Below, one piece after another: positions 35,603-60,358 of a stretch of DNA of 64,000 nucleotides (its first letter is position 1; every line of letters starts with the position of its first letter). The stretch is from Escherichia coli (GTDB taxonomy: Bacteria; Pseudomonadota; Gammaproteobacteria; Enterobacterales; Enterobacteriaceae). Both the position numbers and the translations under genes were made by a program. The stretch lies in the NCBI RefSeq assembly GCF_041248615.1, contig NZ_CP158426.1, one strand, 5' to 3'. The notes below the pieces were generated by a model that did not search any database, was not told the origin of the DNA, and saw only the letters and a list, made by a program, of their open reading frames with translations.

Positions 35603-37681
35603 TTAAATCAATGCCGATTTATCAATTCCCAGTCGCTTCATCCGTGACAGCAGAGTCGTGCGTTTCAGCCCCAGACGTTGCGCAGCGCCTTTAGGCCCGG
35701 CAACCACGCCGTTTGTTTCTTTCAGCACGCGAACAATCAACTGATATTCATCTTCGCCCTCCTGGGCGACAACCGTTGCGGCAGGCGGCGTTTCTGGTTC
35801 CGGTAAAACAATATCTGGCAGTGACAGCTGCAGCACGTTGCCGCGTGTTAGCAATACCGCGCGCTCGATGACGTTTTCCAGTTCGCGCACGTTACCCGGC
35901 CACTCCATGTTGCTCAAGGTGCGCAACGTCTCGGCAGGAATGCTGTCGATATTGCGCCCCAGACGACGGGCAATTTTGAAGGTAAAGGCTTTCGCCAGCA
36001 GCGGAATATCTTCCGGACGCTCGCGCAGGGGCGGCAGGTGGATCGGGAATACGTTCAGGCGGTAATAGAGATCGCTACGGAACTCTCGGTCGGCGACCAT
36101 TTTTTTCAGATCGCGGTTAGTCGCGGCAATTAAACGTACGTCCGTCTGAATGATTTTGTTGCTGCCGAGGCGTTCAAACTCCTGTTCCTGTAATACACGC
36201 AGCAACTTCGGCTGTAACTCCAGTGGCATATCGCCCACTTCGTCGAGGAACAGGGAGCTTTTATCCGCCAGTTCAAAACGACCAATGCGCTGGGCGCTGG
36301 CACCGGTAAAAGCCCCACGCTCATGACCAAACAGATCGCTCTCCAGCAATCCGGCAGGCATCGCCGCGCAGTTCATTTTTACCATGCGGCGATTATTACG
36401 CCCACTGAGATTATGGATAGCACGGGCAATCAGCTCTTTACCTGTACCAGTTTCACCGAGAATCAGCACGGTACTGTCGCTTTGCGCCACCATTTCAACT
36501 TGTTTAAGTACGCTGTACATGGCTTCGCTGCGGCCAATAATCTCGCCAAATTCACTATCAACATTGTTGAGCTGCTCGGTCAGGGCGAGGTTTTCATCAA
36601 CCAGCCGTTCTTTCAGACGATGGATTTCCTGATAGGCGAGGGCGTTATCGACAGCGATTGCCACACGTTCGGCAATCTGGCGCAGTAAATTCAGATTGGT
36701 AGTGGTAAACACTTTCTCTTCGCATTGCGCCAGTTTCAGCACGCCCAGCATGGTGTCGCCAGACATCAGCGGTAACAGGCACAAGGTTTGAATCTGGTTG
36801 CCCCAGGTGTCGAACAACATGCGTTCATAGGGGGCTAAATCGTCCCGCTCGTGGAGATTAATCAGCAGCATCTCTTTGCTTTTGAACACGCGTTCGGTGA
36901 GGGTTCCGGCTTCATCGACTTCGCTCTGTTCGTGGGCGGGATGCTGTTTATCAAGATAGTGAGTGGAGTAGATGTTGAGTTTGTTTTTACGGTGGCTGCG
37001 TAAGACGATGCTGATATCGTCAATGTCGAAGTAGTAATGGATTTCTTTGGCGACTTCGCTGACCAGTTCGTCCATATCCAGGCGGGAAAGCACCGCGTTG
37101 GTAATGGCAACCAGGATGCGGAAGTTATCGCGCTCCCGGCATAACAACTCATAGTCGACATTGTTAACGACGCGGCTCTGGATTTGTTCGGTGACGACAG
37201 AAACGATCTGCGTAAATGTTTGCAGACGATTGAACTCTTTTTCGCTCCAGGGGCGATCGTCATAACGAATAAATTCACAGCCACCAAAAATATGCCCTTC
37301 CGCCGCCAGTGGCATCAGGCAATAGTGACCAAATTTGGGGTATAGCCCACCTGCGGCCAGCTGCGGCCAGGTTTCACAAAATTCTTCGTAACTGCAATGC
37401 AGCGTATCAGGGCGCGACAAAATGCTGCGTACCGGACCGTGTGCCAGAACAGTTTCGTCTTCATATTTAATGGGGGTGTCTTTTTCACGCGATGCGTAAT
37501 AAGACGCACGTTGAGTCTGCGCTTGCCACAACACAATAGCCGCGTTGTCGGCGAGCGCAGAACGCTTTACCAGTTGCGAAAGAGCCTCACACAGCGAGGC
37601 CAGATCGGGCTGCTGCAATAGTGTCCGAGTGATGTCGAACAACCCTTGTTGTCCGAGATCACTCATCGGTGTATATGACAT
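35603..37681 (-). CDS. fhlA: formate hydrogenlyase transcriptional activator (sigma-54 enhancer-binding protein)
   Basis: ORF 35603..37717 over-extended; start at MSYTPMSDLGQQGLFDITR (692 aa); AAA+ sigma-54 activator motifs GETGTGKE and GAFTGA, C-terminal HTH. Confidence 0.93.
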   Translation of the reverse strand: MSYTPMSDLGQQGLFDITRTLLQQPDLASLCEALSQLVKRSALADNAAIVLWQAQTQRASYYASREKDTPIKYEDETVLAHGPVRSILSRPDTLHCSYEEFCETWPQLAAGGLYPKFGHYCLMPLAAEGHIFGGCEFIRYDDRPWSEKEFNRLQTFTQIVSVVTEQIQSRVVNNVDYELLCRERDNFRILVAITNAVLSRLDMDELVSEVAKEIHYYFDIDDISIVLRSHRKNKLNIYSTHYLDKQHPAHEQSEVDEAGTLTERVFKSKEMLLINLHERDDLAPYERMLFDTWGNQIQTLCLLPLMSGDTMLGVLKLAQCEEKVFTTTNLNLLRQIAERVAIAVDNALAYQEIHRLKERLVDENLALTEQLNNVDSEFGEIIGRSEAMYSVLKQVEMVAQSDSTVLILGETGTGKELIARAIHNLSGRNNRRMVKMNCAAMPAGLLESDLFGHERGAFTGASAQRIGRFELADKSSLFLDEVGDMPLELQPKLLRVLQEQEFERLGSNKIIQTDVRLIAATNRDLKKMVADREFRSDLYYRLNVFPIHLPPLRERPEDIPLLAKAFTFKIARRLGRNIDSIPAETLRTLSNMEWPGNVRELENVIERAVLLTRGNVLQLSLPDIVLPEPETPPAATVVAQEGEDEYQLIVRVLKETNGVVAGPKGAAQRLGLKRTTLLSRMKRLGIDKSALI

Positions 37682-41021: not shown

Positions 41022-41372
41022 TCACTCCTGGTCTATTTCTATCCGCCGAATCTGTAAACCGTCGTCTGCCACAATCTGTAGCATGTCACCATGACACTGT
41101 GGACAGCGGCGGACGCGCTGGGTCAGTAGCGTCACATACTGTTGGCATGTTTCACACCAGCATTCGGCCTCTTGTTCTTCGAGGTGCAGTTTACAACCTT
41201 CCGCCACGCTGCCGCGGCAAACCAGATCAAAACAAAAGGCAAGAGAGCTGGTTTCGACACAAGAAAATGCGCCAATTTTGAGCCAGACCCCAGTTACGCG
41301 TTTTGCGCCGTGTTTTGCGGCCTGCTGTTCGATCAATTCCAGTGCCCGTTGGCAGAGGGTTATTTCGTGCAT
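41022..41372 (-). CDS. hypA: hydrogenase nickel insertion protein HypA
   Basis: ORF 41022..41384; start MHEITLCQRALELIEQ (116 aa); CxxC...CxxC zinc site. Confidence 0.9.
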   Translation of the reverse strand: MHEITLCQRALELIEQQAAKHGAKRVTGVWLKIGAFSCVETSSLAFCFDLVCRGSVAEGCKLHLEEQEAECWCETCQQYVTLLTQRVRRCPQCHGDMLQIVADDGLQIRRIEIDQE

Positions 41373-41402
41373 ATCGCCTCCCATTAACTATTGCCAGCTA
41401 CA

Positions 41403-41418
41403 AGCAATAATTGTGCCA
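41403..41418 (-). promoter_or_regulatory. sigma-54 promoter (-24/-12) for the hyp operon
   Basis: Minus strand reads TGGCAC-AATTA-TTGCT, a near-perfect sigma-54 consensus about 30 nt upstream of hypA. Confidence 0.6.
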
Positions 41419-41531
41419 GTGTTGATTATCCCTGCGGTGAATAATGTCGATGATGTCGAAATGACACGTCGACACGGCGACGAAATTCATCTTTAGCTTA
41501 AAAATCGCTTTAATAACAATTAATTAAAAGT

Positions 41532-41547
41532 TGGCATGGAAAATGCT
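41532..41547 (+). promoter_or_regulatory. sigma-54 promoter (-24/-12) for the hyc operon
   Basis: TGGCAT-GGAAA-ATGCT with GG-N10-GC spacing about 37 nt upstream of hycA. Confidence 0.55.
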
Positions 41548-41583
41548 TAAAGCTGGCATCTCTGTTAAACGGGTAACCTGACA

Positions 41584-42045
41584 ATGACTATTTGGGAAAT
41601 AAGCGAGAAAGCCGATTACATCGCACAGCGGCATCGTCGCCTACAGGACCAGTGGCACATCTACTGCAATTCGCTGGTTCAGGGGATCACGTTATCGAAA
41701 GCGCGCCTGCATCACGCCATGAGCTGCGCGCCGGACAAAGAACTCTGTTTCGTCCTTTTTGAACATTTTCGTATTTACGTCACCCTGGCGGATGGCTTTA
41801 ACAGCCACACCATCGAGTATTACGTCGAAACAAAAGATGGTGAAGTCAAACAGCGGATTGCGCAGGCGCAACTGAGCATTGACGGCATGATTGATGGCAA
41901 GGTCAACATCCGCGATCGCGAACAGGTTCTGGAACACTATCTCGAAAAAATCGCTGGCGTTTACGACAGCTTATACACCGCCATTGAAAACAATGTGCCG
42001 GTGAATTTAAGCCAACTGGTAAAGGGACAAAGCCCGGCAGCATGA
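41584..42045 (+). CDS. hycA: formate hydrogenlyase regulatory protein HycA
   Basis: 153 aa; first gene of hyc operon. Confidence 0.9.
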   Translation: MTIWEISEKADYIAQRHRRLQDQWHIYCNSLVQGITLSKARLHHAMSCAPDKELCFVLFEHFRIYVTLADGFNSHTIEYYVETKDGEVKQRIAQAQLSIDGMIDGKVNIRDREQVLEHYLEKIAGVYDSLYTAIENNVPVNLSQLVKGQSPAA

Positions 42046-42169
42046 GCTGAGGCTTTGCCCGTTTTGCAGGCGTTACGCCTGTTTGGGGATGGGCGTGTCG
42101 ATGAGTGTCGAAAATGACATTTCATCGGCATGTTTTCGTCAAAAATGACAATCACCTGAGGAATGCCTG

Positions 42170-42781
42170 GTGAATCGTTTTGTAATTGCTGACTCCACGC
42201 TCTGTATCGGCTGCCACACCTGTGAGGCCGCCTGTTCAGAGACGCATCGCCAGCACGGCCTGCAATCAATGCCGCGCCTGCGAGTGATGCTCAATGAAAA
42301 AGAATCTGCGCCGCAGCTCTGTCACCACTGTGAAGATGCGCCCTGCGCGGTGGTTTGCCCGGTTAACGCCATCACCCGCGTTGATGGGGCCGTGCAGTTG
42401 AATGAAAGTCTGTGCGTAAGCTGCAAACTGTGCGGCATCGCCTGCCCGTTTGGCGCAATTGAATTTTCCGGCAGCCGTCCGCTGGATATTCCGGCAAACG
42501 CCAATACCCCGAAAGCGCCACCGGCACCGCCTGCTCCGGCGCGTGTCAGCACATTGCTTGACTGGGTGCCAGGTATTCGCGCGATCGCCGTCAAATGTGA
42601 CCTTTGTAGCTTTGATGAACAAGGTCCGGCCTGCGTGCGGATGTGCCCGACTAAAGCCCTGCATCTGGTGGATAACACCGATATCGCCCGCGTCAGCAAA
42701 CGTAAGCGTGAGCTGACTTTTAACACGGACTTTGGCGATCTCACCTTGTTTCAGCAGGCTCAAAGTGGAGAGGCTAAATGA
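42170..42781 (+). CDS. hycB: formate hydrogenlyase subunit 2 (4Fe-4S ferredoxin)
   Basis: 203 aa; multiple CxxCxxCxxxCP motifs. Confidence 0.93.
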   Translation: MNRFVIADSTLCIGCHTCEAACSETHRQHGLQSMPRLRVMLNEKESAPQLCHHCEDAPCAVVCPVNAITRVDGAVQLNESLCVSCKLCGIACPFGAIEFSGSRPLDIPANANTPKAPPAPPAPARVSTLLDWVPGIRAIAVKCDLCSFDEQGPACVRMCPTKALHLVDNTDIARVSKRKRELTFNTDFGDLTLFQQAQSGEAK

Positions 42782-53565: not shown

Positions 53566-54579
53566 ATGATGACGACGATGCTGGAAGTGGCGAAGCGCGC
53601 CGGGGTTTCAAAAGCGACCGTTTCCCGCGTGCTTTCAGGTAATGGCTACGTCAGCCAGGAGACTAAAGATCGCGTGTTTCAGGCGGTAGAAGAGAGCGGT
53701 TACCGCCCAAACTTGCTGGCGCGCAATCTGTCGGCGAAGAGTACTCAGACGCTGGGGCTGGTCGTGACCAACACGCTTTACCACGGCATTTATTTTAGTG
53801 AATTACTCTTTCATGCCGCGCGAATGGCGGAAGAGAAAGGGCGACAGTTGCTATTGGCAGATGGTAAACACAGCGCCGAAGAAGAGCGCCAGGCGATTCA
53901 GTATCTGCTGGATTTGCGCTGCGACGCCATTATGATTTACCCGCGTTTTTTAAGCGTGGATGAGATTGATGACATCATTGACGCACACAGTCAGCCGATA
54001 ATGGTGCTTAATCGCCGCCTGCGCAAAAACAGCAGCCATAGCGTCTGGTGCGATCATAAACAGACCAGCTTTAACGCCGTGGCAGAGTTGATAAACGCCG
54101 GACATCAGGAGATTGCTTTCCTTACCGGCTCGATGGATTCTCCCACCAGCATTGAACGTCTTGCCGGGTATAAAGACGCGCTGGCGCAGCATAGTATTGC
54201 GCTCAATGAAAAACTTATCGCTAACGGTAAATGGACGCCCGCCAGCGGGGCCGAAGGGGTAGAAACGTTGCTCGAACGTGGGGCTAAATTTAGCGCGTTA
54301 GTTGCCAGTAACGACGATATGGCGATAGGTGCGATGAAAGCGTTACACGAGCGCGGCGTAGCGGTGCCAGAGCAGGTGTCAGTTATCGGATTCGATGATA
54401 TCGCTATTGCCCCCTATATCGTTCCGGCGCTCTCCAGCGTAAAAATTCCGGTGACTGAGATGATTCAGGAAATTATTGGACGGCTGATTTTTATGCTCGA
54501 TGGCGGGGATTTCTCACCGCCGAAAACCTTCAGCGGAAAATTGATCTGCCGCGACTCACTCATTGCCCTTTCGCGATAA
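53566..54579 (+). CDS. ascG: LacI-family repressor of the asc operon
   Basis: ORF 53503..54579 over-extended; start at MMTTMLEVAKRAGVSKATVSRVL (53566) with AAAGGGA RBS; 337 aa. Confidence 0.9.
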   Translation: MMTTMLEVAKRAGVSKATVSRVLSGNGYVSQETKDRVFQAVEESGYRPNLLARNLSAKSTQTLGLVVTNTLYHGIYFSELLFHAARMAEEKGRQLLLADGKHSAEEERQAIQYLLDLRCDAIMIYPRFLSVDEIDDIIDAHSQPIMVLNRRLRKNSSHSVWCDHKQTSFNAVAELINAGHQEIAFLTGSMDSPTSIERLAGYKDALAQHSIALNEKLIANGKWTPASGAEGVETLLERGAKFSALVASNDDMAIGAMKALHERGVAVPEQVSVIGFDDIAIAPYIVPALSSVKIPVTEMIQEIIGRLIFMLDGGDFSPPKTFSGKLICRDSLIALSR

Positions 54580-54592
54580 ACATTGTCATCAC

Positions 54593-54627
54593 ATGTCATC
54601 GTCACTAGTGTCGATGACATCGTTTTT
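54593..54627 (+). terminator. 28-bp near-perfect palindrome plus T-run after ascG (terminator and/or regulator site)
   Basis: ATGTCATCG-N10-CGATGACAT with internal palindrome CACTAGTG, followed by TTTTT; 14 nt after ascG stop, about 100 nt upstream of hydN. Confidence 0.45.
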
Positions 54628-54727
54628 CCTGCATTGCAGAATTTAATTTCTTTAAATAACAGTAAATTAAAAACTGGCATGATTTGTGAATGTATCGGCG
54701 CATTAACTGTCATTGCTGGAGAATTTG

Positions 54728-60342: not shown

Positions 60343-60358
60343 TGCAGATTGCGTGCCA
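60343..60358 (-). promoter_or_regulatory. sigma-54 promoter (-24/-12) for norVW
   Basis: Minus strand reads TGGCAC-GCAAT-CTGCA about 45 nt upstream of norV. Confidence 0.6.

Follow-up and report, generated by a model that had tools for sequence, protein, structure and literature searches.

The DNA between hypA and hycB very probably (probability about 0.93) constitutes the regulatory core of the Escherichia coli formate regulon, in which sigma-54 promoters are combined with clusters of FhlA half-sites on both flanks of hycA (Table 1). These promoters and activator sites are already known, having been textbook biology since 1990–2000, and the hyp-hyc control region is a classic enhancer-dependent sigma-54 system that is annotated in regulatory databases. 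The value of the present analysis is mainly that of a positive control, in which promoters and activator sites were recovered from sequence alone; as discovery it adds little.

The window (the whole 64-kb stretch of DNA that was analysed) derives from an E. coli chromosome and is a 100% match to NZ_OW967178.1. Two E. coli chromosomes match the 1.6 kb surrounding the control region at 100%, and essentially all 5,426 complete genomes of the species do so at 95% or more. RefSeq annotation of the identical genome gives the minus-strand gene order fhlA, hypE, hypD, hypC, hypB and hypA, followed on the plus strand by hycA and then hycB through hycI, with ascBFG, hydN-hypF and norVW/norR beyond the hyc genes. 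The identities of hypA, hycA and hycB given in an initial annotation of this DNA agree with RefSeq, and the span 41373-42169 coincides exactly with hycA plus its two flanking non-coding stretches, the intergenic region towards hypA and the hycA-hycB spacer. A hairpin is present after the hycA stop codon.

The gene for the cognate activator, fhlA, lies downstream of hypE, 4 kb from the promoter region, and has an intact reading frame. Its product contains the Pfam domains GAF, Sigma54_activat (E = 1.1e-72) and AAA_lid_14 and a C-terminal Fis-type HTH_8, the last at 21.0 bits, which is slightly below the Pfam cut-off of 22 bits. HycA, the product of the gene between the two half-site clusters, counteracts FhlA.

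Table 1. Genes, predicted promoters, predicted enhancers and motif copies in the window.
Feature	Position	Strand	Sequence	Remarks
fhlA, cognate formate-responsive sigma-54 activator	35603..37681	minus		downstream of hypE; Pfam domains
hypA	41022-41372	minus		ATG at 41372
Sigma-54 (-24/-12) promoter of hypABCDE(-fhlA), predicted	41403..41418	minus	TGGCACAATTATTGCT	TGGCAC-AATTA-TTGCT
hyp-hyc intergenic FhlA enhancer, predicted	41445..41474	.	TGTCGATGATGTCGAAATGACACGTCGACA	TGWCR/YGWCA half-site array
Motif copy 1, hyp-hyc intergenic region	41455-41466		GTCGAAATGACA	
A+T-rich linker, intergenic enhancer to hyc promoter	41490..41531	.		sequence variable, length and position kept
Sigma-54 (-24/-12) promoter of hycABCDEFGHI, predicted	41532..41547	plus	TGGCATGGAAAATGCT	TGGCAT-GGAAA-ATGCT
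hycA, HycA regulator gene	41584-42045	plus		ATG at 41584; between both enhancers; Pfam HycA_repressor, E = 1.3e-89
hycA-hycB spacer enhancer, site A, predicted	42096..42119	.	TGTCGATGAGTGTCGAAAATGACA	best FhlA-matrix score within
Motif copy 2, hycA-hycB spacer	42107-42119		GTCGAAAATGACA	
hycA-hycB spacer enhancer, site B, predicted	42134..42150	.	TTTCGTCAAAAATGACA	
Motif copy 3, hycA-hycB spacer	42137-42150		CGTCAAAAATGACA	
hycB start	42170	plus		
Half-site cluster upstream of hydN, predicted second FhlA-regulon enhancer in the window	54584..54619	.	TGTCATCACATGTCATCGTCACTAGTGTCGATGACA	

Divergent sigma-54 promoters of hyp and hyc

The initial annotation had placed divergent near-consensus sigma-54 elements facing hypA and hycA, and this reading holds in its coordinates, in the uniqueness of the two consensus matches and in their identity with ChIP-bound sites. 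The pattern TGGCAYN5WTGCW has exactly two matches on both strands of the 64-kb window, where 0.61 would be expected, and these are the hypA and hycA elements. Both have the GG and GC dinucleotides of the sigma-54 consensus TGGCAC-N5-TTGCW at the exact 10-bp separation. Scoring of ~128,000 window positions with an RpoN position matrix built from 186 sigma-54 promoters (PMC7658346, Table 2) placed the hypA element at rank 1 (score 19.0) and the hycA element at rank 4 (score 14.9), rank 2 being the known norV promoter and rank 3 a site within hycA. Each element is on the correct strand, with 31 nt for hypA and 37 nt for hycA between the -12 element and the ATG.

The hyp start site probably lies near 41392, ~20 nt before the hypA ATG, and the hyc start site near 41558, 26 nt before the hycA ATG; a K-12 table likewise lists gene distances of 20 nt for hypA and 26 nt for hycA (PMC4591121). 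The two divergent promoters are ~130 bp apart and their inferred starts ~166 bp apart. A scan of 41300-42300 for sigma-70 promoters and terminators gave no signal above shuffle expectation.

Including one flanking base, the hypA element (CTGGCACAATTATTGCT) equals the K-12 sigma-54 ChIP-seq motif OS28 (PMC4591121), and the hycA element of the window (TTGGCATGGAAAATGCT) is identical to TGGCATGGAAAATGCTTA, a site bound in ChIP-chip of Salmonella LT2 (PMC3844500). At the hycA position K-12 carries TTGGCACAAAAAATGCT, with TGGCACAAAAAATGCT at the same place (ChIP-seq motif OS27; PMC4591121), and the K-12 hyp-hyc intergenic region was also recovered by genomic SELEX (gSELEX) with the sigma-54 holoenzyme (PMC8743547). 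The original description, as it is cited in PMC3844500, is that of 'divergent NtrA-dependent promoters' by Lutz et al. 1990 (Mol Microbiol 4:13). Both elements were kept in 80/80 species of the comparison described below, the hyp element as GCAA-N5-RTGCCA and the hyc element as TGGCAY-N6-TGC. The assignment of both as sigma-54 promoters is supported, and their occupancy in the strain of the window is predicted from the identical ChIP-bound sequences.

Among E. coli records, 5318/5426 carry the 84-bp spacer segment without change, and 4133 do so for the 94 bp that contain the hyp promoter together with the intergenic enhancer. The adjacent 94 bp, which include the linker, the hyc promoter and the hycA leader, reach at least 99% identity in only 3/5404 records, the others having 90-96%. 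The hyc -24 region reads TGGCATGG in the strain of the window and TGGCACAA in K-12, the former allele being rare in E. coli, and the linker differs from that of K-12 by two further SNPs. The unusual polymorphism of the linker and hyc -24 region within E. coli, together with a strain that carries a rare allele, represents a modest comparative addition.

The rank 3 site of the RpoN scan is a near-consensus sigma-54 element inside hycA, on the sense strand at 41653-41668 (TGGCACATCTACTGCA), which scores above the hyc promoter of the window. It arises from the codons for W-H-I-Y-C and is kept only where these codons permit. The site is absent from the K-12 ChIP-seq tables, in which it may not be resolvable because the hyc promoter peak is only 121 bp away.

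FhlA half-site clusters and their conservation

All five strings of the initial annotation occur at the positions it had given, and its proposal that the recurring motif GTCGAAA(A)TGACA is a candidate FhlA upstream activating sequence gains from the near-perfect fit of the motif to the published matrix and from its inclusion of the CGAAATG half of the published consensus. In the 64-kb window TCGAAA(N0-1)TGACA has two matches against 0.08 expected, a number reached in 0/100 shuffles, and the third motif copy is one mismatch from the second. When up to two mismatches to the 13-mer were allowed, the window contained 4 occurrences against 1.8 expected and 13/100 shuffles did as well, so loose matching of this string is a poor genome-wide probe. 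The motif belongs to a longer direct repeat, TGTCGATGA(G)TGTCGAAA(A)TGACA, of which it is the 3' (right-hand) part. This repeat is present on both flanks of hycA and is not described in the initial annotation; it reads TGTCGATGA-TGTCGAAA-TGACA in the intergenic region (41445-41466) and spans the whole of site A in the spacer.

Two published descriptions of the FhlA consensus are mutually offset: the palindrome CATTTCGTACGAAATG, which PMC4987338 attributes to Leonhartsberger et al. 2000, and the 14-bp matrix TGWCRAWRATGWCA, derived from 13 characterised sites and summarised as TG(A/T)C-(A/G)A(A/T)(A/G)AT-G(A/T)CA (PMC7658346). The CGAAATG half of the palindrome is contained in motif copy 1, and TGTCGAAAATGACA is essentially the consensus of the 14-column matrix. 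A matrix scan of the 64-kb window gave the best score to 42106-42119 (18.0 of a possible 18.2), the second best to 41445-41458 (TGTCGATGATGTCG, 16.5) and about 12 on either strand to 42137-42150, a result that is partly circular because the matrix comes from K-12 sites very probably including these identical sequences. The intergenic motif copy has 13 bp, not 14, and is out of register with the gapless matrix. Both the hyp-hyc and the spacer enhancer sequences are identical in K-12, in which FhlA binding was reportedly studied on identical sequence (Schlensog et al. 1994; Leonhartsberger et al. 2000). The repeated motif is supported as the core of the published FhlA site and is a predicted FhlA upstream activating sequence.

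Half-sites were defined as TGWCR and its complement, taken from the motif of the initial annotation only, and were counted in sliding 60-bp windows. The densest such windows in the 64 kb are those upstream of hydN (54576-54635) and in the hycA-hycB spacer, with 5 half-sites each, followed by the hyp-hyc intergenic region with 4 per 60 bp, tied with one other window. A maximum of 5 was attained in only 7/200 simulated sequences that matched the window in size and dinucleotide composition. At 55-90 bp downstream of the hydN cluster is the hydN sigma-54 element CTGGCATGATTTGTGAA (54674-54690), a string equal to the K-12 ChIP-seq motif OS26 (PMC4591121).

Upstream of K-12 fdhF, 6 half-sites occur in 60 bp, including CGTCAAAACTGACG and two copies of TTTCGTCA; the K-12 hyf upstream region is weak, with only 2 half-sites in its best 60 bp. 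The hydN and fdhF regions carry variants (GTCGATGACA and CGTCAAAACTGACG, respectively), not the exact 12-13-mer. Absence of the motif from other FhlA-dependent promoters, which the initial annotation had named as evidence against its proposal, is not what was found, since this half-site family also occurs upstream of hydN and fdhF, in variant forms and with hyf weak. Aligning the hyp-hyc, spacer, hydN and fdhF enhancers with MAFFT was uninformative because the spacing of the arrays differs, and half-site density was used instead.

Half-sites in the two clusters flanking hycA are spaced by about 9-10 bp, those of the intergenic array being 8-9 bp apart. From the centre of the intergenic cluster it is ~98 bp downstream to the inferred hyc start and ~68 bp to that of hyp, and 57 bp separate this cluster from the hyc -24 element. 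The spacer cluster (42096-42150) is ~700 bp from the hyp promoter with its -24 element, and the hycB ribosome-binding site (GAGGA, 42158-42162) follows 8 bp after the end of site B. The linker between the intergenic cluster and the hyc promoter contains an IHF-like core, TAACAATTAATTA, at 41513-41525, one mismatch from WATCAANNNNTTR, and the perfect core is present at the same position, 18-19 bp before TGGCA, in 12/36 species. IHF is said to stimulate hyc (Hopper et al. 1994).

Conservation was assessed by a HycA scan with one genome per species, which yielded 80 loci from genera including Escherichia, Salmonella, Citrobacter, Enterobacter, Klebsiella, Raoultella, Kluyvera, Kosakonia, Lelliottia and Pseudescherichia; 36 representatives were aligned and motifs were counted over all 80. 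Of the 80 species, 72 have the intergenic motif TGWCGA.ATGACA, in every case as the 13-bp form that is one base under the matrix consensus. The remaining 8, mainly Klebsiella and Raoultella, have a hydN-like TGTCGATGAC/GTCATCGACA arrangement. In the spacer, TGTCGA-N3-4-TGTCGA is found in 77/80 species, and the TGACA half after this repeat in 61/80 (32 with the 14-bp and 29 with the 13-bp form), being missing mainly from Enterobacter. The 16-mer TTTCGTCAAAAATGAC before hycB is exact in 75/80 species and invariant in 36/36 aligned, and the ATCACCTGAGGA that follows it is also highly conserved in the 36-species alignment.

The distance from the spacer 16-mer to the hyp -24 element ranges from 652 to 737 bp across species. 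That from the intergenic motif to the hyp -24 element is 33-35 bp in most species and 45-46 bp in the rest, and that from the intergenic motif to the hyc element is 43-66 bp. The resulting phylogenetic footprint is one in which the motifs are conserved and the surrounding linker is not. The retention of enhancer half-sites and both promoters in at least 80 enterobacterial species, and a conserved intergenic FhlA site one base shorter than the matrix consensus, are further modest comparative additions.

Enhancer assignment and alternative readings

The geometry of the region, with the intergenic cluster ~100 bp upstream of hyc and an IHF-like, bendable linker between them, suggests that this cluster is the hyc enhancer. 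The hycA-hycB spacer cluster is probably the hyp enhancer, acting from ~700 bp, an assignment that the initial annotation had also given. It is unlikely that the intergenic cluster activates both divergent promoters, with the spacer cluster as an auxiliary or in another role, such as raising local FhlA concentration or cooperative looping between clusters. Sigma-54 enhancers are orientation-independent, and the intergenic motif keeps a tighter distance to the hyp -24 element than to the hyc element, both of which would suit such an arrangement; the ~68 bp to the inferred hyp start would, however, be close for looping without a bend, and the spacer cluster is the most conserved non-coding DNA of the region, with no sigma-54 promoter between it and hycB for it to serve. 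The spacer site is also reported to be required for hyp activation (Schlensog et al. 1994; Hopper et al. 1994).

That the spacer sequence acts mainly at the RNA level, in hycB translation or in processing of the hyc transcript, and not as a DNA enhancer, is very improbable. The spacer is transcribed within the hyc mRNA, and the hycB Shine-Dalgarno sequence follows 8 nt after the end of its invariant 16-mer, which is continued by highly conserved bases, but the same DNA motif occurs at non-transcribed enhancer positions of hyp-hyc, hydN and fdhF and fits the published FhlA matrix. The interval between site A and site B is variable and contains indels, so that no conserved hairpin is evident in the spacer, and an Rfam search of the region returned no family, only a chance microRNA match. 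Chance similarity in A+T-rich intergenic DNA, with which the lack of enrichment of the 13-mer at two mismatches would accord, has next to no probability as an account of the recurrences: copies that match exactly or nearly so are enriched, they occur together with sigma-54 promoters of this regulon, and the motifs are conserved in 80 species in which the flanks diverge. These conservation data rule it out.

A separate and unlikely suggestion is that the element at 41653-41668 is a putative internal promoter or sigma-54 docking site or, alternatively, that the invariant 16-mer doubles as an RNA-level control of hycB translation. If the element were a promoter, fed by the flanking FhlA enhancers, it could give a hycB-I transcript without functional hycA, possibly uncoupling hydrogenase-3 synthesis from the HycA brake.

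Proposed mechanism and comparison with known systems

Sigma-54 RNA polymerase binds its promoters as a closed complex, which it cannot open alone, and FhlA binds formate via its N-terminal region. In the regulatory core proposed here, one promoter would drive hypABCDE(-fhlA) leftwards and the other hycABCDEFGHI rightwards, and FhlA (GAF-AAA+-HTH) would bind the half-site clusters. Formate-bound FhlA would then hydrolyse ATP and contact the polymerase by DNA looping, leading to promoter opening. HycA, encoded between the enhancers, counteracts FhlA and so provides negative feedback, and read-through from hyp into fhlA provides positive feedback. FhlA is reported to form a tetramer on one face of the DNA, according to PMC11291172, which cites Leonhartsberger 2000 for this.

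The K-12 hyc and hyp promoters represent the same locus, with the same gene order and positions and a hypA element that is identical base for base. Among the FhlA sites of the formate regulon (fdhF, hyc, hyp, hydN and hyf) the present region shows no biological difference, the intergenic site of the window having the 13-bp form. Like enhancer-dependent sigma-54 activation of the NtrC/glnAp2 type with IHF-assisted looping, the arrangement has an activator cluster ~100 bp upstream of the start site and an IHF-like core in the A+T-rich linker that follows, and its enhancers are predicted to act from afar (~700 bp for hyp). It differs from that system in that FhlA has a GAF-type, formate-sensing N-terminal region in place of a phosphorylated receiver domain, and in that one FhlA enhancer lies within the spacer of a transcribed operon.

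The rare hyc promoter allele

The 94-bp segment comprising the linker, the hyc -24/-12 element and the hycA leader is a rare allele: of 5404 complete E. coli genomes, just 3 match it at ≥99% identity, with the others at 90-96%. The enhancer segments on either side of it are identical in 4133 and 5318 E. coli records. In the -24 region of the hyc promoter, this strain carries TGGCATGG, as do Salmonella and Citrobacter, whereas K-12 has TGGCACAA. The species alignment shows the hycA leader, which forms the 3' end of this segment, to be strongly conserved in many genera, yet it lacks an obvious Shine-Dalgarno sequence.

Features of the hyc locus and other sigma-54 regions
Feature	Coordinates	Strand	Sequence	Basis or remark
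Rare allele (linker, hyc -24/-12 element, hycA leader)	41490-41583			94 bp; E. coli genome comparison
hycA leader	41559-41583		TCTCTGTTAAACGGGTAACCTGACA	Cross-genus alignment
Near-consensus sigma-54 element within hycA	41653-41668	+ (sense strand of hycA)	TGGCACATCTACTGCA	RpoN matrix
Hairpin	42051-42098			Shortly past hycA stop codon; RNA fold
16-mer	42134-42149		TTTCGTCAAAAATGAC	hycA-hycB spacer; species alignment and counts
hydN control region	54584-54690			Half-site cluster and sigma-54 element
hydN half-site cluster	54584-54619			Begins 5 bp past ascG stop codon
hydN sigma-54 element, weak	54674-54690		CTGGCATGATTTGTGAA	Same as K-12 ChIP-seq motif
norV sigma-54 element	60343-60358	-	TGGCACGCAATCTGCA	RpoN matrix

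A sigma-54-like element within hycA

A further sigma-54-like element lies 121 bp 3' of the hyc promoter, spelled out by Trp-His-Ile-Tyr-Cys codons of hycA. Its RpoN-matrix score of 15.1 ranks third in the scan of the whole 64 kb and exceeds that of the actual hyc promoter of the same strain. The element was found in 35 of 80 species, and every species in which the His codon is changed to Arg or Gln, or TGC to TGT, has lost it. It is absent from the K-12 sigma-54 ChIP-seq site list (PMC4591121), where neighbouring peaks would make it difficult to resolve.

The hycA-hycB spacer

The 16-mer is invariant in all 36 aligned species, matches exactly in 75 of 80 and is more conserved than the adjoining coding DNA. 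It is probably an FhlA site and, with the hycB ribosome-binding site 8 nt past its end, may have an additional role at the mRNA level. The hairpin (-25.2 kcal/mol, z = -1.96) has the core stem GCAGGCG-TTA-CGCCTGT followed by TTTGGGG, and, lying between hycA and hycB, could act as a stabiliser or terminate transcription in part. The species alignment limits this segment of about 50 bp to spacers of the type seen in Escherichia, Citrobacter and Salmonella; the remaining genera have the enhancer immediately after the hycA stop codon.

Comparison with norV, hydN and other genera

The norV element ranks second among sigma-54 matrix matches in the window and agrees with the motif known for the K-12 norV promoter. 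In the hyp-hyc intergenic regions of Klebsiella and Raoultella (loci L041, L047, L049, L061 and L066), an inverted pair, TGTCGATGAC...GTCATCGACATGTC, stands in place of the TGWCGA.ATGACA arrangement, and it is this pair that the E. coli hydN enhancer, GTGTCGATGACATCG, resembles.
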